A stretch of DNA of 64,000 nt. Origin: Escherichia phage vB_EcoP_WFI101126. Below the pieces are notes generated by a model that ran no database searches, was not told the DNA's origin, and was given only the letters and a program-made list of their open reading frames with translations. Location: the sequence record NC_070991.1, one strand, 5' to 3'. Each line of letters starts with the position of its first letter. Position 1 is the first letter of the stretch. Shown piece after piece: positions 9,457 through 64,000 of this stretch. Made by a program: the position numbers and the translations under genes.

Positions 9457-10548
9457 ATGCAACAGACAACTTACGCTCAGGTTAGAAGTCGTGACCCGAG
9501 AAATACTTTCTATGGTGTTAATCCGGGAGCGGCTTCGGCCTCTCCTTATATGGCTAGACCGACTCAGACAGCAGACATTTCTATGTACCAACGTCCTGCT
9601 GTACCTTCATCTCTTGCGGGTCTTGTCTCTCAGGCAGAAGAAGATCAGAATGCTATGATTAATCCGGGATTTCAGCAACGCCTTATGGAACAGCAGAGTC
9701 AAGGAATCCCTACCAGTCTTCAGGGTATTGATATTGGAGCACCAGCCCCTGTAGCGGCTAATCCTAACCTATCCACTGATCAAGGTTTACAAGATGCAGG
9801 GCTTATGCCTAGTGACCCTCTTCCGGTAACACCTCCCCCTAAACCACTAGAAGCCGGTCCTATGGAATTTACTCCTTCTCAGGTGGAACAGGCACAAGGT
9901 GTGATTAACACTCTTGCTCAAGGACAAGACACTGGTGATGGGATGACTGCTGCTACTCGTGCTAAAGATCAGGAACGTGTTAACAACGATATCTTGCAAG
10001 TTGCGAAAGCTAAAGACCCTTCGGAAGCTTGGAACAAACTACAGAAAGAACCGTTCTATCAGAACTCTAGTTTCTATACAGGTTTGATGGGTGTAGGTCT
10101 TTCAATCATGTCAGATAAATCTCCTATCGAAGCTTTCCAGATTGGTCAGGGAATGGCTAATCAGGATGAGACTAAGAAGCAACTGGAAGCTAACCGTGAT
10201 GCCCTGATTGAACAAGGTTTCTCTCAAGACTCAATCGCAGCTGCTATTGCTAACGGAGATCCTTCTCTGCTGAAGATGAAAGCTGTAGACCCTGCTCAGA
10301 AAGAAGCGTTGTATGCTGCTCGTGAAGAACGACAGAATGCTGAATGGGACAGACGTCAACAGATTCAAGAGCAGACTATGCGTGAGCGTGCTGAGGAAAC
10401 TCGTCGTGCCGCTGAAGAAAGAGCTAATATGAACTTTGAACGTCAGAAAGAGTTGATTGGATATCGTGATCAAGTTAAGGCTGAACGTGCTGAACAAGCT
10501 GCTCAGAGTTTTAACTTCAACCCGAAAGAAGTCCGTCTTGCGTGCTGA
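9457..10548 (+). CDS. internal virion protein, 5' portion truncated by tandem duplication
   Basis: ORF reads through copy 1 of a 55-bp repeat and stops at TGA inside copy 2. Confidence 0.5.
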   Translation: MQQTTYAQVRSRDPRNTFYGVNPGAASASPYMARPTQTADISMYQRPAVPSSLAGLVSQAEEDQNAMINPGFQQRLMEQQSQGIPTSLQGIDIGAPAPVAANPNLSTDQGLQDAGLMPSDPLPVTPPPKPLEAGPMEFTPSQVEQAQGVINTLAQGQDTGDGMTAATRAKDQERVNNDILQVAKAKDPSEAWNKLQKEPFYQNSSFYTGLMGVGLSIMSDKSPIEAFQIGQGMANQDETKKQLEANRDALIEQGFSQDSIAAAIANGDPSLLKMKAVDPAQKEALYAAREERQNAEWDRRQQIQEQTMRERAEETRRAAEERANMNFERQKELIGYRDQVKAERAEQAAQSFNFNPKEVRLAC

Positions 10549-11167
10549 ACAAGCTGCTCAGAGTTTTAACTTCAACCCGAAAGAAGTCCGTCTTGCTCAG
10601 AATACAGCTGAAGGTACGGTTGCTAAGCAGTGGGCAGAGAAAGGTGGCTTGTTTAACCAGTCCAATAAAGACTTGGACTTGGCTGATAAAGCTGTTAAGG
10701 ACAAAGATTATCAGACGGCCCGTTCTGCTTACATGCAGGCTATCATGAACTCCGCAAGGGCTGAAATCGGTGCTACTCGTTCTCTTACCGAAGAAGACTT
10801 GGGACACTTTGCAGAAGACCCATCAATCTTCGTTCGTGTTGGTAACAAGTTTGCACTTAAATCTGGATGGCGTCCTACTGATTCTGCTCTTGCTTATGCT
10901 CGTAAGCAGGCTAACGTTGGTCACACCTCTGCAATGAAAGGTGTTGCTGATGCTAAGAGAGCTACGATTGAAGCTTATATCGGTTCTGGTATGGATAAGA
11001 AGAGAGCTACTGCATTGGTCAACCGTGCAATCCCTTCTGGTGGTTTCTATGACCCTCTAGGTGTTTTCTCTGAACAAGCGGAGGAAGCAGTTGGTGGTGC
11101 AGCAACCAATCCTAAGCTTAATGGTGCTTTATCGGCTGTAGAAGATACTAGCTGGTTCACGCAATAA
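10457..11167 (+). pseudogene. 3' portion of the same virion protein gene, out of frame because of the duplication
   Basis: Peptide AEQAAQSFNFNPKEVRLAQNTAEG continues the upstream ORF once one repeat copy is removed; no RBS of its own. Confidence 0.4.
10487..10596 (+). repeat. perfect 55-bp tandem direct duplication (2 copies)
   Basis: 10487-10541 and 10542-10596 are identical; 55 is not a multiple of 3, so frame shifts. Confidence 0.95.
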
Positions 11168-11234: not shown

Positions 11235-14200
11235 ATGGCTAACATTAAACCGTGGGAAGAAGCTTCCAAAGCTCCTGCGTATCTGAATGCCTCTCCGGAG
11301 CAACAAGCTCAAATGAGAGAACAATATAAGGCAGCAGGTGGCTCTATTCCTGAGGAACAACCAGTAGCACAACCACAACAAGAAGAACGTGGTGCTATAG
11401 GTGAGTTTGCTCAAGGTGTGTCAAATGCTCTTCAATCTGGTGGTGCAAATATTGCAGCTAGTGCTGCTAAAGGTATTGGTGGTTTAGTTGAGATTGGTGA
11501 GAATCTAGCTGGAACACAAACTAGTTATGGTAAGCGTATCCAAGAGAACTCTCAGAACCTTCTGAAAGAACGTATGGATAAGATTGAGGATGGGGTTGGT
11601 AAAACTGTTGGTCAGTATGCTGGCGTTGCTGGTGATATTGGTATGACTGTTGCTAATCCATTGGCTGCTGCTGCTATCATCGCAGGTCGTGAGACAGGTC
11701 GTGCGTATGCAGACCAAACACCTGAAGAGGGAGAAGATAAATCTATTCTAGATGCGGCCTTAGTTGGTGGTGCTAACTATGCGGCTCAGAGAATCCTTCC
11801 GGGTGCTGTTGGTACAGCTGAGTCCACACTTGGACGTATCGGTCAGAACGTTGCTAGTAACGCAGTGGCTGGTGCTAAAGGTGGCGCTCTTGTAGGTGCT
11901 GCTGAAGCTCAGAACAAGCATGGAGATGATACAACCTTTGCTAATGTATTAGAGGGTGCTATCGAAGAAGGTGCTATGGGTGCTGCATTTGGTGGTGCAG
12001 TTGGTGGGGTTCATGGTTTGATTAGCCGTCCAGACTCTGCTGTCTTCAAGAATACTCCAGAGTATGCGAAGACTGATATTGCTGCTGATGACGAACTAAT
12101 TCGCAGTGCTAAGAATATTGATGAATTGAAAGAAGCCTACTCTAAAGCTGAAACTGCTAACGCTGCTTCTGCTCTGAATCTTCTGGATGAGAATGGATTC
12201 CGTATTACAGATGCTGTTGCTGTAGATTCTCCTGCTGCTCAGCGTATTCTCAATACTGACCAAGCTCGCGCTGAGAAAGCTGCTTCCATTCAGAAAGAAC
12301 ATTCCAACATTCCGGGCCTTAACCCTTTAGCTTCTCCTGCTAAGACTCGTGGTAAAGCATTCGCTGATAACGAGCACAACCAGAAGCAGGCTGTTGCTAT
12401 GAAGGATGCAATGGCTGATTACACCAAAGACAACACGAAAGCTCTTACAGATGTTCTAGATAATCTAGACCGTGAATTAACATCTCTCCGAGCTTCTGGT
12501 GATTTTACTGGTAGTCCGATTGATATTAAGAATCGTACACAAGCCGACCGTGACTTCATTGATGCTTACAAGACTTTCTACAACGAAGCAAATCGATTCA
12601 AAGCTCGTGATGGTGAAGACTTTAATAACTTTGTAGAGAAAGCTGCTGAACTACAGAAGATGGCTGATAATGTTTCTCCAGAGATGAAGAAAGCTATTGG
12701 TGGGTTGAAGAAACTGAAAGGTATGCCTGAAGGTTTTAATCCTATCCAAGATGCTTACACTCTGAACAATACAGCTAAGTTCATGAGCAACCAAGATCGT
12801 GGTTGGACTTCCCTGACTGATGATGGATTCCGTGAGGCTTCTTCACCTAGTCTGGTAATGAACACTCTTGGTGCTGCTAAGTATGCTCTGAATCGCTTCT
12901 CTTCTCAGCGTGCTCGCTCTCAACGTGTTAAGCAACAAGAGTCTAACAGTGAAGCTATCCGCTCTCTTGCTCGTGGTGATTTGGAAGTTGCTCGTGCTAA
13001 ATCTACTGCCGAGGAAGCTCGTGCTAGGATGGAAGAAGAACCAGTTGTTGATGACATTAAATTTAAGACGCAAAATGACGTAGAAACCGAACCGGTTCGG
13101 GAGCCTTCTTCTAGTACTGTGACGGAAGAAAATCTTCCTTCTTCTGCTCCTCAAGAAACTCCTCTTACAGCTCGTGATTTAGTTGCTCAAAGACGTGCTA
13201 TCCGTCAGGCTGAACAGCGTCGCGCTGAAGAAGAGGCATTGGCTGCTCAAGAAGCTCCGGTCGAACAAGCTCCACAGGCTGAACCTCTCCCTGCTCGTAA
13301 CCCTTTAGAGGAACGTCGTGCAATGGAACAGCAACGTGCTCAAGAAGAGGCCGCACAGGCTCCAGAACCCACCGTAGAGGAACCAACAGTCAAAGCTGAG
13401 CCATTACCTGCCCGTGCTCCTAAAGCTCCTAAGGAGGCTGTACAGGACGTTAAACCGGCAAGTGGTGTAGAACGTTTAGCTGCTATGTCTAGTGCTGCTC
13501 GTCAGGCTACCAAAGATCGTGCAGAACGTTTTGCTCGTTCTCTGTACTCTAAGGCTGCTAAGGCTAAAGCTACTGCTGAAAACTTCTTGGCTTATAAAGG
13601 TGATCCTAAGGAATTGATGCGTCGTATTCGTCAGGAAGATAATGCTATCAACACTGAACGTCATGAAGAAATGGCTCGTAACCAGCTGGCTTCTCAGCAA
13701 GGTATTGCTACTGCTAAGAACAACACTGTACGAACTAATTTTGCTGAATGGGTTAAAGAACGTGGTCTGCCAGAAGACATTGCTACTAAGGCATTACGTG
13801 CTGAAGAGAAAGGTTTAGGTGGGAACGTAACTAACTTGGATAGTCTGAAACGTCGTGCTGAAAGGTTGTATCAGAAGCAGCGTGAGGATGAGTTTGATAG
13901 ACTGTACCAACAAGCTCTAGAAGAGAATAAAGCTTTCGATAACAAGAATGCTCCTAAGCTGGCTGACCAGAAGAAAGAGCTTCAGTCTGAGATTGATGCT
14001 TTGATTGATTCAGAACCTTTACGTCCTGCTCAGAAAGATGCTATGCGTAAGCTGATGAATGATTTTGTAGATGGGAAGTTTAAATCTTCAGAGAAGGCTG
14101 GTAGGGAAGAGGCTTTGGAAGTTGGTCAGATGAAGGATATTTGGGATGGGTTTATTAATACCTATAACAGAGAGGTGAATGCCTTCAACAAAGCTAACAA

Positions 14201-19751: not shown

Positions 19752-20165
19752 TTATATGAATTTCTGCATACCTTTGATACGAGGGTTATCATCACCAACT
19801 CTCGATTTACAGTAAGCGATAAAAGATTCAGTATTGAGGTTATCCTTTTGAGAACCCCACTGGAGATTGTCTGCTCTATTGTTGCTCGGATTATCATCCA
19901 GATGCATAACAACAGCGTTAGGAAAAGGTTTCTCACCATGAAAAATCTCACACACTAAGATATGAATCCTTTTCTTAAACTTTCTTTTCCTGTTTACAAA
20001 CACCATTCTTCCATCTTTCTCTCTATATCCGCTATATGGTTTTCCTACGAAAAGCCTAACTCCACCATTATTCGTTATGGCTGTGAAAGGCTTAATCTTA
20101 ACTCTACCAAAAGATGATACGGAAAGGAAATCATAATAGGGGTGATCTTTCCAGACTTCTTCCAC
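19752..20165 (-). CDS. HNH homing endonuclease
   Basis: HLDDNPSNNRADNLQWGSQKDN HNH core. Confidence 0.7.
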   Translation of the reverse strand: MEEVWKDHPYYDFLSVSSFGRVKIKPFTAITNNGGVRLFVGKPYSGYREKDGRMVFVNRKRKFKKRIHILVCEIFHGEKPFPNAVVMHLDDNPSNNRADNLQWGSQKDNLNTESFIAYCKSRVGDDNPRIKGMQKFI

Positions 20166-20174
20166 TATCTATCC

Positions 20175-20921
20175 TCAAAATGGGCTATCGTTGTCGTCTT
20201 CGTAAGTAGAGGCAGGCTCTTTATCAATCGTAGGGATTGAAGGAGTAGCTTCTTTCTGCTCTGTTTCAGAAGCACGAGTAATTTCACGACCAGCCAGAGG
20301 CATGTTCTTAGCGTCATTAGCTTGAGTAAGCAGGTTGCGCTGGAACGGGAACATCAGTTGATAAGATGCTACGTTCTCATCGGTTTCAGCATACGGTTCG
20401 AAGAATACCAGAGGACTACGAGCTTCACCAACTGCTGCACGATATTTGGTTGGGATTGGAGAAATGGTCTTGATGGAGTTTTTAACTTCACCAGCTTTGT
20501 TAGTATAAGAGTTAACCAGAATGTTAACAGGCTGGCCTAACAGAACATCCTTGAACCAAGACAGATCACCTTTCAGTGCTTGAATACTTGGGTCAATCAT
20601 CTTGCAAAGATCAAGAATACCAGAGTTCTTAGCTCGTGGGTTTACATCATAGCTCTTGAACTGGCAAGCCGGACGTGGTTCTAATGCCTTACCATCGGAA
20701 TCTTTACCAGTAGCATCAACACCAATCAGCTCGAAAGCTAAATCCATACGGAAAGCTGGATTCTTAGGAGTTACTGCTTTGGTCTTCGGGTCAATCCAAG
20801 GGTCACGATTGTGAACACCCAAACCTACTACACGAACGATACGTGCTTCGTACTCACCATCAGGGATTACATCGTAGTTGGATTTACGGGAAGCAGTTGC
20901 GATAGTTGGAATCATAGACAT
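20175..20921 (-). CDS. ssb: single-stranded DNA-binding protein
   Basis: Acidic C-terminal tail ending DDNDSPF (compare SSB DDDIPF); position in replication cluster. Confidence 0.5.
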   Translation of the reverse strand: MSMIPTIATASRKSNYDVIPDGEYEARIVRVVGLGVHNRDPWIDPKTKAVTPKNPAFRMDLAFELIGVDATGKDSDGKALEPRPACQFKSYDVNPRAKNSGILDLCKMIDPSIQALKGDLSWFKDVLLGQPVNILVNSYTNKAGEVKNSIKTISPIPTKYRAAVGEARSPLVFFEPYAETDENVASYQLMFPFQRNLLTQANDAKNMPLAGREITRASETEQKEATPSIPTIDKEPASTYEDDNDSPF

Positions 20922-28897: not shown

Positions 28898-29046
28898 TTG
28901 AAATCCTCTAACTTAGTAGAGAGTTTAATGATGCTGTTAATACTAATAATCTGATCTTGAGAAAGAGTTCTACCTTTCATTTTACGGGACATCTTTCTTT
29001 TTGATTGTCTTTCTTGATAGAATCGGTTCTTTAAAGTCTTAACCAT
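28894..29046 (-). CDS. small basic hypothetical protein
   Basis: Internal start chosen to avoid overlap with 29039..29362. Confidence 0.2.
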   Translation of the reverse strand: MVKTLKNRFYQERQSKRKMSRKMKGRTLSQDQIISINSIIKLSTKLEDFK

Positions 29047-29362
29047 GACGTACACCTGTTTTAAGTCTGTAAACAGATAGGGCCATACAGGCCACTGTTT
29101 CATTGTGTGGGAGATGCATTCCTGTAGAACCATCCCAATCTTTGAACTCGTTGTCAAAAACTCCGGTAGGTTCTGGATAGAGGTCTTGCAACTCAACCAA
29201 ATCGTTAGCAACTTGTTGCCATTTATCATCAGACCAGATAGGGTCATCCAACCAGTAATACAAATAGGAATGGATGATCAATTGCCTTCTATGCCGATTG
29301 ATTACTTCAGCGGGACTTATCTCACTTCCATTTGAAGTCCTAAATGTATTACTGTCAATCAT
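29039..29362 (-). CDS. hypothetical protein
   Basis: ORF track. Confidence 0.35.
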   Translation of the reverse strand: MIDSNTFRTSNGSEISPAEVINRHRRQLIIHSYLYYWLDDPIWSDDKWQQVANDLVELQDLYPEPTGVFDNEFKDWDGSTGMHLPHNETVACMALSVYRLKTGVRHG

Positions 29363-29544
29363 TTCACAACCTTAAATTTGAATGTTGTTGGGTGATAATA
29401 GTGCAACCTGTTAATGGTGTGCTTTGTTTCAAGATATATCCTACAAGAGTGACACATAACATGAGATAAACCAGTCACAGGGTTGGGTTTGAAGTTGGCG
29501 ATAGGCTTCTCTTTCTTACAGAAACTACAGACTTTCTTTTCCAT
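29359..29544 (-). CDS. small Cys-rich hypothetical protein
   Basis: CSFC...CHSC pattern. Confidence 0.3.
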   Translation of the reverse strand: MEKKVCSFCKKEKPIANFKPNPVTGLSHVMCHSCRIYLETKHTINRLHYYHPTTFKFKVVK

Positions 29545-29758
29545 CTTTTCTCCAGTGGTCAACGAATTGCTGAAACACTTTATGGTCGAATGTGAAACCT
29601 CGAGCAATCCCACACTCTATGAAAGTAGAAGGCATATAGTCTACATCATCTTTAGATGTATGACCATAAACTTGAATAAGCTTTTTAATCCTATCCTTCT
29701 CTCTTCGAGGAAGCATTCTAAATGCCTCCTGAATATCTGTAATGTGTTTGATTTTCAT
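29525..29758 (-). CDS. hypothetical protein
   Basis: ORF track. Confidence 0.35.
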   Translation of the reverse strand: MKIKHITDIQEAFRMLPRREKDRIKKLIQVYGHTSKDDVDYMPSTFIECGIARGFTFDHKVFQQFVDHWRKDGKESL

Positions 29759-29907
29759 CAGAAATTCCTGCTAATCCTCTGAGTTGTGGGAACAGCAATA
29801 TTCACATACTCCACAACAAGGGCAAATATCTACACTTGGGTCGTATGCATCATCAACTGTCATCCCACACTTGGTGCAGAACACATCATCATCTTCCTCT
29901 TCCAATA

Positions 29908-30162
29908 TTAGCCCTCCAAACAAGAACCATTAGACAGTAATTCCACGCTGTCAAGTGTGTAATAATAACCAAAGAATGGGGATGTTAACTTGGAAACCTT
30001 TTTATCAAAAAGAGATTGAGAAACACTCTCTTCTACTCCAACATCTTCAAGCTGTTGTTTTGTAGGATAGTCAGTGAAAGAGCAAAGCACTTCTATGTCC
30101 TCCCCTATGTCCGTGTCTTCAACACGGCTCAGAATCCAAATATCCTTCTTAACCATTTCCAC
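29908..30162 (-). CDS. hypothetical protein
   Basis: ORF track. Confidence 0.3.
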   Translation of the reverse strand: MEMVKKDIWILSRVEDTDIGEDIEVLCSFTDYPTKQQLEDVGVEESVSQSLFDKKVSKLTSPFFGYYYTLDSVELLSNGSCLEG

Positions 30163-30814
30163 TCTCCAAAGTTTTCTTCAGAGCTGCCCACGAGATAGGG
30201 TAGAGCTTCGCCATCTCTTCGTCTACGGATTTAGCAAATACTCGAACTTCGTATTGAGCGTGAGAGGAGAGTCGCTGACGACACAACTCAAACCATCCAT
30301 ACAAAGAACCAGTCCACACCCACTCAGTGATCATCCCCTGAGGGAGTACAAATCGGGCTTGCTCTGGTGCAATAAATTCAATCAACTTGTCATATGCTGC
30401 TAGAGAAGCTTCATATGCATCGTTAATTAACATTAATGCTTCAGCTCGCTCTCCGTCGATGAGCTGAACCCCTGAACCTGCATGGAGGTCCGAAGGTCTC
30501 GCAAAAATCTCTTTAGGGATGAAGACTTCAACTGCTCCATCTTTATACCGCCGGGACATTTCGTTCCACGAGAATCCAACCTGATGCTTGCCCAGCTGTC
30601 TCGCAATTGCGATAGGTGCTTTGCATCGGAAACTGACTTGCGGGTGTCGGAATGGGGTAACATGCTTCTCTCTTGCGAGGAAGTTGATGAGACGTTCATC
30701 ACGTTCATTTAAATCACCTTCACGGGTTACGCCAAAGGAAACTCGAGCTGCGTTTACTACGCTACGATCACTTCCCATAGCTTCGATTAATGTTGCTTGT
30801 AATTGTTCATTCAT
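30149..30814 (-). CDS. thyX: flavin-dependent thymidylate synthase ThyX-like
   Basis: ThyX-like signature H.....S.NE.S.RY (HQVGFSWNEMSRRY) and AARVSFG N-terminal motif. Confidence 0.7.
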   Translation of the reverse strand: MNEQLQATLIEAMGSDRSVVNAARVSFGVTREGDLNERDERLINFLAREKHVTPFRHPQVSFRCKAPIAIARQLGKHQVGFSWNEMSRRYKDGAVEVFIPKEIFARPSDLHAGSGVQLIDGERAEALMLINDAYEASLAAYDKLIEFIAPEQARFVLPQGMITEWVWTGSLYGWFELCRQRLSSHAQYEVRVFAKSVDEEMAKLYPISWAALKKTLESGNG

Positions 30815-30829
30815 CCGTGAATTTCCTTA

Positions 30830-31039
30830 TTAATATTCCTTGATTGGGGATACCACAAAACCACCAAGAGGTGAGGTAAAAGATTTATGTAAGCTTATTT
30901 TGCTATAAATCTTTGGAGCCATCTTAAGAGCCTTCTTAAAACGACGAGCATCTTTACGAGTAGCAAAATGCTCTGTAACAGGTATAGAATGGTCTTGGTA
31001 GATATAATACATCACCGTCCAGTATTTTCCCATAATCAA
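30830..31039 (-). CDS. small protein, member of TR(K/Q)xAR..KK family
   Basis: ATRKDARRFKKALK motif, C-terminal Tyr; paralogous to 32894-33509 trio. Confidence 0.4.
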   Translation of the reverse strand: MIMGKYWTVMYYIYQDHSIPVTEHFATRKDARRFKKALKMAPKIYSKISLHKSFTSPLGGFVVSPIKEY

Positions 31040-31308
31040 ACACCTAGTGCAGTAGTTAAAAATGCTTTCAGGTTTGCCTCAGTCTGCATACCAGAGAGGC
31101 TGTAGTGTGCACCACTGTTACGGTCAGGTACGACGAAAGCAGGTATGCTTCGTACACCATATTTAACAGCTTGTTCACGACCATCTCCTTCAAGGATGTT
31201 AATCTCTTCCACTTCTACATCAAACTCCCTAACAACCTTCTCAAAGGTAGGAGCCATTGCTTTACATGGAGCACACTGATCACTATAAAACTTAATTACT
31301 TTACTCAT
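31036..31308 (-). CDS. thioredoxin-like protein
   Basis: CAPC active-site-like motif at conserved position, downstream cis-Pro (SIPAF). Confidence 0.7.
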   Translation of the reverse strand: MSKVIKFYSDQCAPCKAMAPTFEKVVREFDVEVEEINILEGDGREQAVKYGVRSIPAFVVPDRNSGAHYSLSGMQTEANLKAFLTTALGV

Positions 31309-31498
31309 TCTATTCCTTGTTAATAAACAGATTGATATGACGCTGGGTAGCAGGAACAACAATAAAAGATTTATACTGACCTTTTGCTAAGTCATGAGCA
31401 ATCTTCTTTGTCTGACCAAGACCCATCACACAGCCACTAACGATAATGGCATGTGCTTGTAATTCTTCAGGTAGGTTTAGTTTCACTCTTTGGGTTCC

Positions 31499-31684
31499 TT
31501 ATAGCATACAAAGAATAATAACAAGAGGTAGTGTTATAGCAAAATGTACCAGAACAACACTACCTAGCTTGATAGCTTTAACATCCTCTTCTGCTGGGTT
31601 TTCTTTAATTGCTAAATTTCGAGCTTTATATATAACAGTACCAACTATTAACGACCACACGGCCCACACAATCAGTGAAATCAT
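31499..31684 (-). CDS. small two-TM membrane protein (paralog 1)
   Basis: Two hydrophobic helices flanking charged loop. Confidence 0.35.
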   Translation of the reverse strand: MISLIVWAVWSLIVGTVIYKARNLAIKENPAEEDVKAIKLGSVVLVHFAITLPLVIILCML

Positions 31685-31693
31685 ATCAAATCC

Positions 31694-31873
31694 TTATGCA
31701 GTCAGGAGGTGAAGCAGGAATGGGATAACAACAGCTACGATAACCATGATAGTTGATGCTGTTTGAATCTCACCTTTCTTATCAGGAGTTTCTTCAATAA
31801 GCTTACCAGAAGCCCAATAAATACCACCACCAATAAAGATAGCCCAAATACCCCATACGATTGCTGATAACAT
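31694..31873 (-). CDS. small two-TM membrane protein (paralog 2)
   Basis: MLSAIVWGIW... similar to 31499..31684; below track cutoff. Confidence 0.3.
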   Translation of the reverse strand: MLSAIVWGIWAIFIGGGIYWASGKLIEETPDKKGEIQTASTIMVIVAVVIPFLLHLLTA

Positions 31874-48271: not shown

Positions 48272-48487
48272 CTAAAAATCACTTGATTTTACAAAATCAT
48301 CACTAAGGATTTCGTCAATCTCTTTGCTAGTCAAATCTTTCCTGAACCAGCAACAAGGAACATCCACCCATTGACCAGAGTTGTTTTCTACAGAGCATCT
48401 ATTGCCTGTCTTACTCTTGCACTTATAGGTTTTCCCTTTGTCTAGACGATAGTGTATTCTGTAAACGATCGACACAAGTGCTATCAT
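48272..48487 (-). CDS. Cys-rich hypothetical protein
   Basis: ORF track. Confidence 0.3.
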   Translation of the reverse strand: MIALVSIVYRIHYRLDKGKTYKCKSKTGNRCSVENNSGQWVDVPCCWFRKDLTSKEIDEILSDDFVKSSDF

Positions 48488-48744
48488 TACTCTATCCTAA
48501 CTGAAGGGCAGTATTTCTCTTTCTTGCTGCGATACATCACAACAATCCAGTTTGAATCACGACGCTCTTTCTTACGTCGTTTCTTTTCAGCACGAGTTTC
48601 ATATGTGCTAGTTCGGTGGTCACGGTATATTCCACGAAGTTCATGAAATGCCCAACTACCACCAAACACTACACCAGCCAAAGCAGCCAAAGGTAAGGCA
48701 CCAAGAGCAGGGGCAGTGAACCATGTCCACCAATTGAATGACAA
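48487..48744 (-). CDS. membrane protein with basic C-terminal tail
   Basis: TM helix then RAEKKRRKKERRD; overlaps 48669..48950. Confidence 0.3.
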   Translation of the reverse strand: MSFNWWTWFTAPALGALPLAALAGVVFGGSWAFHELRGIYRDHRTSTYETRAEKKRRKKERRDSNWIVVMYRSKKEKYCPSVRIE

Positions 48745-48950
48745 AAATTCTCATGTCCAAGGAGAGAGCCACCAATCATGGATAGTGCAGCGTATACAAT
48801 CCCTAACAGCAGCGTCAGTGCAATGAAGTGCATCACTGTACGCCAGAAGTATTCGCAAAAGTTAGTCATATTATCCCAATGAGGGTTGGGTAAACCTGAC
48901 ATGGTTTTGTTTAACTTATGCAACCATCCGTTCTTGTTAATCTTGATCAT
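48669..48950 (-). CDS. membrane protein
   Basis: TM helix; possibly one gene with 48487..48744 separated by a frameshift. Confidence 0.3.
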   Translation of the reverse strand: MIKINKNGWLHKLNKTMSGLPNPHWDNMTNFCEYFWRTVMHFIALTLLLGIVYAALSMIGGSLLGHENFCHSIGGHGSLPLLLVPYLWLLWLV

Positions 48951-50208: not shown

Positions 50209-50379
50209 TCAGATAGACGGAGAGAGTACTCGATCAGAGTTAACGGTTACATTAGGACTTTCAGATACAGTCCCTTTGACATAGAGAGTAGCACTCTCGG
50301 GGAATTTAAATACTGCTCCGCTGGGAAGGGTGTTGAGATCAACCTTGGTCACTTCTTCTTTCTTGTGAGTAATCTTCAT
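50209..50379 (-). CDS. small beta-rich protein, multicopy family member (56 aa)
   Basis: KVDLNTLPSGAVFKF; ATG overlaps stop of upstream gene (ATGA); below track cutoff. Confidence 0.35.
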   Translation of the reverse strand: MKITHKKEEVTKVDLNTLPSGAVFKFPESATLYVKGTVSESPNVTVNSDRVLSPSI

Positions 50380-54646: not shown

Positions 54647-54958
54647 TTACTTAACTGCTTCCATCATCTTACGAACGTTAGCCACACCTTTCTGAATCAA
54701 AGGCAGGAACTCATCACCCAAACTAGAAGATAGAAGACTCAAACTTCCCGTCTTAATGCCACGACATGCTGACTCTACTTCTTCCGGCAACAATGTCATA
54801 TTAAACCACGGAGATTTAATCTCTACTGTAAATCCGGGGTTGTACCGGCTCTCGCTATGATTAAACTCCAGATAAGTGACACCGGAGCAGTGTTTCATTT
54901 GAGCACGAATTGTTACAGTGGGCTTACACATCACAAAAGAAGAAACAGACATAATCAC
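54647..54958 (-). CDS. hypothetical protein
   Basis: ORF track. Confidence 0.35.
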   Translation of the reverse strand: MIMSVSSFVMCKPTVTIRAQMKHCSGVTYLEFNHSESRYNPGFTVEIKSPWFNMTLLPEEVESACRGIKTGSLSLLSSSLGDEFLPLIQKGVANVRKMMEAVK

Positions 54959-54963
54959 TTACC

Positions 54964-55182
54964 TTACTTTTGAGTCACATGTAGATCAGGGCGAGGTGTA
55001 ACAGTAGTGCCGCCCTTAAAAAGACCAACATAACCAGTACGAAGATTGGCTGCTTTATGTGAACCATTATTTGCTACCTCTTCAAGCAGCAACCAGAACC
55101 GGCTATCATAAAAGAAAACCGACCCACTTTCTAGATCACATATTTTTGAAAACTTAAGAGGTTTACCTTCATTGATTTCCAT
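54964..55182 (-). CDS. small beta-rich protein, multicopy family member
   Basis: PLKFSKICDLESGSVFF...AANLRTG. Confidence 0.4.
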   Translation of the reverse strand: MEINEGKPLKFSKICDLESGSVFFYDSRFWLLLEEVANNGSHKAANLRTGYVGLFKGGTTVTPRPDLHVTQK

Positions 55183-55437
55183 TTACTTACCCTTGTTGGT
55201 AATCACTGCATCAGGAATAAGGACTACAGGAATATCTGAAGCGAGCTTCATAACCTGATTGATGTTTAAATTTAGCACCACACAACCGGCACTAGGCTTA
55301 GCTTCGGTTACATGTGGAGTGAAGAGTTGCACAACCATGTAATAACTTATACCGGTGTTTTTAACTTGGAATACATCACCCAGTTTCAGATCACTCAACT
55401 TAAGTTCTGGATTCTTCCACTCAAGATCAATCTTCAT
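55183..55437 (-). CDS. small beta-rich protein, multicopy family member
   Basis: LKLSDLKLGDVFQV...VVLNLNINQV...VVLIPD. Confidence 0.4.
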   Translation of the reverse strand: MKIDLEWKNPELKLSDLKLGDVFQVKNTGISYYMVVQLFTPHVTEAKPSAGCVVLNLNINQVMKLASDIPVVLIPDAVITNKGK

Positions 55438-63336: not shown

Positions 63337-64000
63337 CCATTTATTTTCTAACTTTCTTGCATCTTACTGAAAACTGAAGGAATTTAATTTACTAAACTTC
63401 CCATACTCAGAGAATCAGCTTACTGACTATTGTTACTTTATAACACTAATCCTACGGGTAGCAGACCAACATACCAGGACAAACGGGGATACAACAACCG
63501 CAGAACAGACCACGGGGAAACATAGCCAGATAGTGCGGTAATAATATACCACTTAAATAATTAGTTAACTATTAATAGCATTACTCAAACATCAAAGACG
63601 TTCGTACTTCGTACTCACAAAGGCACGCTGAAAAAGAAAAGAATAAACATCAATTATTAAAAGAAATATAATCATCCACTTAATTAATACATACATCATT
63701 ATTGCACTCATAATCATTACTATTGAAACTATTTACATTCAAACTATGGGGAGTGGTGGCTGTCATTAATGGCATTATTAGTCTGCTAATTAGTGCAGCA
63801 CAGTGCTAGCCGCTTCCCGCGTGTTTCCTAAAAAGGGGGAGTCCTCATTTAAAAAAGGGTTATTGGCAATGCCTTTACCTTCCTTTTCAACGTTCCACCT
63901 TTCCCCGTGCCTACTCCCCGTAATTATTTCCCCGTGTATACCATCCTATTCATTAGCTACCCGTTTATTTAGTTCCCCTTTAGAGAGTGAGAGAAAGGCT

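Follow-up and report, generated by a model that had tools for sequence, protein, structure and literature searches.

Does the 55-bp tandem duplication that interrupts an ejection-protein gene in the deposited genome of Escherichia phage vB_EcoP_WFI101126 belong to the phage, or did it arise when the sequence was assembled and finished? The phage (MK373770, record of 77,307 bp) is a phiEco32-like podovirus of the genus Kuravirus. The window analysed here, to which coordinates refer unless another record is named, comprises the last 64,000 bases of the record, i.e. record positions 13,308-77,307. A sequence-only reading of this window had left two explanations side by side, a very recent event and an assembly artefact. 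The artefact half of this alternative stands and the recent-event half is strongly disfavoured: because the repeat is exactly as long as the SPAdes k (55) and the genome ends were adjusted by hand in the source study, we regard the duplication as almost certainly an assembly or finishing artefact of the deposited genome, an untrimmed SPAdes k = 55 overlap, and no feature of the phage.

Table 1. Positions of the duplicated unit, the two pieces of the ejection-protein gene and the terminal repeat within the 64,000-nt window
Feature	Position	Strand	Remarks
Copy 1	10487-10541	+	Identical to copy 2; segment single in relatives; putative 3' end of the original contig
Copy 2	10542-10596	+	Length equal to the '55kmer' SPAdes setting (PMC6563267); putative 5' end of the original contig, untrimmed k = 55 overlap
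Ejection-protein gene, N-terminal piece	9457-10548	+	PQC57_gp022, QBQ76450.1 / YP_010674204.1, 363 aa
Ejection-protein gene, C-terminal piece, +1 frame	10487-11167	+	PQC57_gp023, QBQ76451.1, 226 aa, GTG start
Premature TGA from the frame shift, inside copy 2	10546-10548	+	
Kuravirus 193-bp terminal repeat, reverse complement	63807-64000	-	Very end of the window and of the record

Direct comparison of the two copies (Table 1) shows 55 nt each, head to tail and 100% identical, and Tandem Repeats Finder returns a period of 55, 2.0 copies and 100% matches, in agreement with the perfect duplication first noticed in the sequence-only reading. The unit runs from GTGCTGAAC to CGTCTTGC. In the deposited sequence, copy 1 closes with ...GTCCGTCTTGC and copy 2 opens with GTGCTGAACAAG..., and with its flanking letters the junction reads ...AAGTCCGTCTTGC/GTGCTGAACAAGC..., the slash marking the boundary. 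Within the 64-kb window, a repeat search and our own scan for tandem duplications found no other long perfect direct repeat, and a chance origin of a 55-nt exact match, at about 4^-55 per position, is excluded. Identity between the copies continues for 1 nt leftward and 0 nt rightward, and the placement of the unit is ambiguous by 1 nt, as it could equally be shifted leftward by a single base. For a slippage junction, the flanks to compare are ...CTGAAC/GTGCTG and ...CTTGC/TCAGAA; C is their only common base, and the flank comparison revealed no microhomology at the duplication junction beyond this 1 nt, which is chance level. GCTGAAC, earlier proposed as a junction microhomology, does not hold in this role; it reflects a local 9-nt periodicity and occurs just 5' of copy 1 and again within each copy.

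The reading frame shifts because 55 = 18 x 3 + 1, and automatic annotation (Prokka) therefore called two coding sequences of 363 and 226 aa. The ORF from 9457 enters copy 2 and stops there at the premature TGA, so that the N-terminal piece consists of 362 native residues and a Cys; its identity to residues 1-362 of the 551-aa protein of Escherichia phage Ptacy1532 is 98%. The open stretch of the +1 frame reaches from 10457 to 11167, and the C-terminal piece is 99.5% identical to residues 344-551 of the same protein and shows no decay. Deleting one copy in silico gives a single ORF of 551 aa plus stop. The upstream ORF ending in copy 2, the continuation of the same protein in another frame up to 11167 and the restoration of an ORF of about 552 codons had all been described in the sequence-only reading, and all three are reproduced here. 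A search for exact protein identity assigned the 363-aa product to the WFI101126 record, and gp024 (1,473 aa), the gene that follows, agrees with the deposited annotation as well. The start codon of gp024 is trivially ambiguous: the longest ORF begins at ATG 11190 (1,488 aa), and the deposited annotation and the PHROG profile place the start at 11235.

Judged from its sequence, the interrupted gene is a homologue of the ejection protein SU10 gp23 / phiEco32 gp25 (PHROG 12130). The restored ORF matches the PHROG 12130 profile end to end (1-551 of 551, E = 0), is 98% identical to the cluster representative and lies in the same gene block, with a 322-aa 'DNA ejection protein' on one side and the 1,473-aa protein on the other. 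The locus forms one 1,656-nt CDS in phiEco32 (phi32_25), SU10 (ACQ52_gp023) and Ptacy1532 (XTK85279), whereas in the WFI101126 record the 55-nt insertion splits the gene into two CDSs. Searches for the ejection protein returned no family or domain in Pfam and no solved structure among its relatives in the PDB. In SU10, gp20-24 were detected in virions by mass spectrometry and are lost on genome release, which led to their naming as ejection proteins (PMC9509320). The order of locus tags suggests that ACQ52_gp023 is SU10 gp23, and by homology with this protein the WFI101126 ejection protein is probably carried in the virion; the earlier label of an internal virion protein is thus reasonable. 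In two further kuraviruses, myPSH2311 and myPSH1131, the same ejection-protein gene is annotated with only 416 aa, its start being placed at the equivalent of Met136.

Ptacy1532, at about 98.7% identity, is the nearest record. Over the first 25 kb, this genome and the window are collinear, interrupted by a single large break, the 55-nt insertion. A 1,851-nt query from the window spans only 1,794-1,799 nt, i.e. about 55 fewer, in all 40 listed records (the best 40 of 84). With the junction in the middle of a 70-nt query, no record gave one continuous alignment; instead, both halves of the query aligned to the same 56-nt stretch (30 listed of 56 matching records). At the protein level, close complete homologues in a library of 5.8 billion proteins measure 549-551 aa and distant ones 543-593 aa, and the listed members of a 142-member cluster have 551 aa, with the 226-aa fragment of WFI101126 itself as the sole exception. 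The exact 38-nt junction sequence had zero matches in IMG/VR, the JGI metagenomes and the GTDB genomes, and no contig encoding the 363-aa product was found in the contig collections searched. The exact restored 551-aa protein is likewise absent from a collection of 15 billion proteins, and the collections searched hold no independent second assembly of WFI101126. The comparison with related genomes thus shows the listed relatives to be single-copy throughout and confines the duplication to the WFI101126 record.

When SPAdes encounters a cyclic path, as arises from circular, circularly permuted or terminally redundant genomes, it writes this path out linearly, and the two ends of the resulting contig share exactly k bases. 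Published phage workflows provide precedents for the handling of such ends: a 55-bp overlap was trimmed and the contig then reopened (PMC8483715), and 127-bp overlaps were trimmed before reopening (PMC5923482; PMC8104045). In the source study of WFI101126, Korf et al. (2019) assembled Illumina data with 'SPAdes ... (55kmer)' and re-adjusted genome ends by hand (PMC6563267). Table S4 of the study lists WFI101126 with 77,307 bp, 97.9x coverage and no terminal repeat, and neither the paper nor its supplement states whether this phage belonged to the Illumina or the PacBio subset (PMC6563267). We infer that it was among the Illumina/SPAdes genomes and that the original contig ended at the site of the duplication. 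The features expected of a SPAdes overlap are present at this locus: the copies are fully identical and directly adjacent, the unit length equals the k given in the paper (in which the platform is not stated for this phage), the contig was reopened after assembly, with the window ending exactly at the terminal-repeat boundary, and the duplication is absent from the listed relatives and from independent assemblies. A random duplication would hit exactly 55 nt with a probability well below 1%, and the match to k is therefore strong evidence alone.

The duplication would then most probably have arisen as follows. Assembly of terminally repeated phage DNA by SPAdes at k = 55 would give one circular-type contig, the last 55 bases of which would be the same as its first 55, and the break of this contig would happen to fall inside the 551-aa ejection-protein gene. 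During re-linearisation to match phiEco32 and SU10, the old contig ends would have been joined with the overlap kept, and the join would read ...KK..., where K is the overlap, i.e. a perfect internal 55-bp tandem duplication. The likeness to a de Bruijn contig-end overlap lies in the perfect identity and in the length, which equals the final k (55). In a raw contig, however, the two copies stand at opposite ends, whereas those of WFI101126 are adjacent and internal. This internal adjacency requires an extra, documented step, namely re-linearisation without trimming.

The right-hand end of the record bears on how the sequence was finished. Window nt 64000 aligns to nt 1 of phiEco32 and, in YF01, to the base with which the annotated 'direct terminal repeat' begins, so that the window and the record end together. 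The last 194 nt are the kuravirus 193-bp direct terminal repeat in inverted orientation (Table 1). All five relatives compared (phiEco32, SU10, YF01, Ptacy1532, and Ptacy1479) have the repeat in forward orientation behind the same flank. The right-hand repeat was probably pasted in the wrong orientation during the manual adjustment of the ends, and its inversion independently indicates that errors were made when this record was finished by hand.

Further duplications are found in sister records of the same study. Five further genomes were scanned for perfect tandem duplications: R4596, PTXU06, MM01, WFI, and G29-2 (its first 50 kb). R4596 (MK373771.1), whose accession number directly follows that of WFI101126, contains a perfect 168-bp tandem duplication at 19870-20205. 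The duplication extends over the final part of a small ORF and the beginning of the portal (head-to-tail connector) gene, and in each of the 11 relatives compared the span is shorter by exactly 168 nt. The locus tags of this genome carry the prefix 'R4596rev_', which suggests that the contig was reverse-complemented. PTXU06 (MK373789.1) has a perfect 1,064-bp tandem duplication at 32105-34232 that doubles two genes (PTXU06_00045/46 and 00047/48), and its listed relatives lack the duplication and span roughly 800-1,060 nt less. The GenBank length of this genome is 45,904 bp, vs. 42,321 bp in Table S4 (PMC6563267). The scan returned zero perfect tandem duplications in MM01, WFI, and the 50-kb part of G29-2, and likewise zero in Ptacy1532, the control from an unrelated study. 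Counting WFI101126, three of six study genomes thus have perfect internal tandem duplications unique to their record, which points to overlaps left during the re-linearisation of contigs. The five sister genomes yielded no second 55-bp case, only the 168- and 1,064-bp duplications; these two overlaps have an origin other than k = 55 and speak for careless end joining in the dataset, not for the same k-mer mechanism.

The foremost alternative is a real and very recent event of replication slippage or unequal recombination in the phage stock, with an ejection protein truncated to 363 aa and a stock that survives either because the gene is dispensable on the laboratory host or because revertants, formed when recombination between the 55-bp repeats removes one copy, sustain the population. 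Genuine tandem duplications do occur in phage stocks, and this one resembles the classical frameshifting cases in its head-to-tail repeat, its +1 shift and its potential to revert by the loss of one copy; it is also present in the deposited sequence, and copies without any mismatch would be expected from a very recent event. Two frameshifts unique to the window (A6 to A5 at 48743 and a GA loss at 50220) could mean a stock that accumulates mutations. We nonetheless consider such an event very improbable. Duplications by replication slippage usually have short junction homology and arbitrary lengths, whereas the WFI101126 junction shares 1 nt, without microhomology, and its unit length is exactly an assembler parameter. 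The C-terminal part of the gene is undecayed when compared with Ptacy1532, and those relatives that were checked have an intact gene. As the SU10 homologue is a virion ejection protein, a null allele should, on general grounds, be counter-selected, and a perfect 55-bp repeat should revert readily. Other editing anomalies, both in this record and in those of its sister genomes, likewise speak against a real event. Points against the artefact reading are the sequencing platform, which the source paper leaves unstated for this phage (PMC6563267), the sister duplications of 168 and 1,064 bp instead of 55, and the three clean sister genomes.

A variant of this alternative, which we rate as extremely improbable, combines a real duplication with two overlapping polypeptides, one with residues 1-362 and one starting at TTG 10538 with residues 344-551. 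It would represent a fresh gene fission of a virion-internal protein in which infection is still supported.

More doubtful still, and hardly credible in our view, is a rescue at the level of expression, in which a real duplication would be tolerated through +1 ribosomal frameshifting in the 92-nt overlap (10457-10548) or through coupled re-initiation at TTG 10538. Frameshifting would give a full-length protein with an internal repeat of 18-19 aa, and after re-initiation residues 1-362 and Met plus residues 344-551 would have to work together as a split protein; both fragments would keep the duplicated 18-aa segment. The +1 frame is indeed open across the overlap, and TTG 10538-10540 lies 8 nt before the TGA, with an AAGAAG Shine-Dalgarno-like motif 6 nt upstream and the purine-rich GAAAGAAG at 10524-10531, a geometry compatible with coupling. 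A TTG with a 5-of-6 match to the Shine-Dalgarno sequence is a weak start, however, and such a split arrangement occurs in no relative compared, all of which have one continuous ORF. The paradigm of a +1 slippery site is CUU-UGA-C of prfB, whereas the sequence before the stop in WFI101126, CUU GCG UGC UGA, allows no tRNA re-pairing in the +1 frame. The rescue also presupposes a real duplication, which is itself improbable. Programmed ribosomal frameshifting was rejected, as 10457-10548 contains no slippery motif for it and nothing similar is conserved among the relatives. Given the agreement of the 55 nt with k and the hand-adjusted ends, the earlier suggestion that the phage carries a truncated protein or depends on frameshifting or repeat loss is very probably moot.

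With the untrimmed overlap as the preferred explanation, the split ejection-protein gene is almost certainly a database error without biological significance. In MK373770 and its RefSeq copy (YP_010674204.1, YP_010674205.1), one conserved gene appears as two hypothetical proteins, and the fragments have already entered UniRef and protein clusters. The GenBank/RefSeq record merits correction, and the sister records MK373771 and MK373789 are suspicious likewise. In genome scans, a perfect internal tandem repeat of 21, 33, 55, 77, 99 or 127 should be presumed to be an assembler overlap until reads contradict this.

Smaller differences from the relatives occur elsewhere in the window. At 48743, in a minus-strand gene at about 48487-48950, a 1-nt deletion unique to the window leaves A5 where relatives have A6 (Ptacy1532, phiEco32, and SR02; 172-1 is too divergent at this site and has an intact 465-nt gene), and a 154-aa homologue of the phi32_92 'membrane protein' is split into ORFs of 85 and 93 aa. 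At 50220, in a minus-strand gene at about 50209-50379, one GA is lost from a short GA-rich run, again only in the window, so that the phi32_97 homologue measures 56 instead of 82 aa; the two extra bases are present in Ptacy1532, phiEco32, and 172-1. Both frameshifts may be consensus errors or real variants. Finally, the window is mosaic at about 28900-31700 and 54650-55430, where similarity to Ptacy1532, elsewhere 97-99% identical, is low or absent. These stretches fall in small early genes near the ThyX and HNH regions, and their mosaicism looks like ordinary module exchange among kuraviruses.
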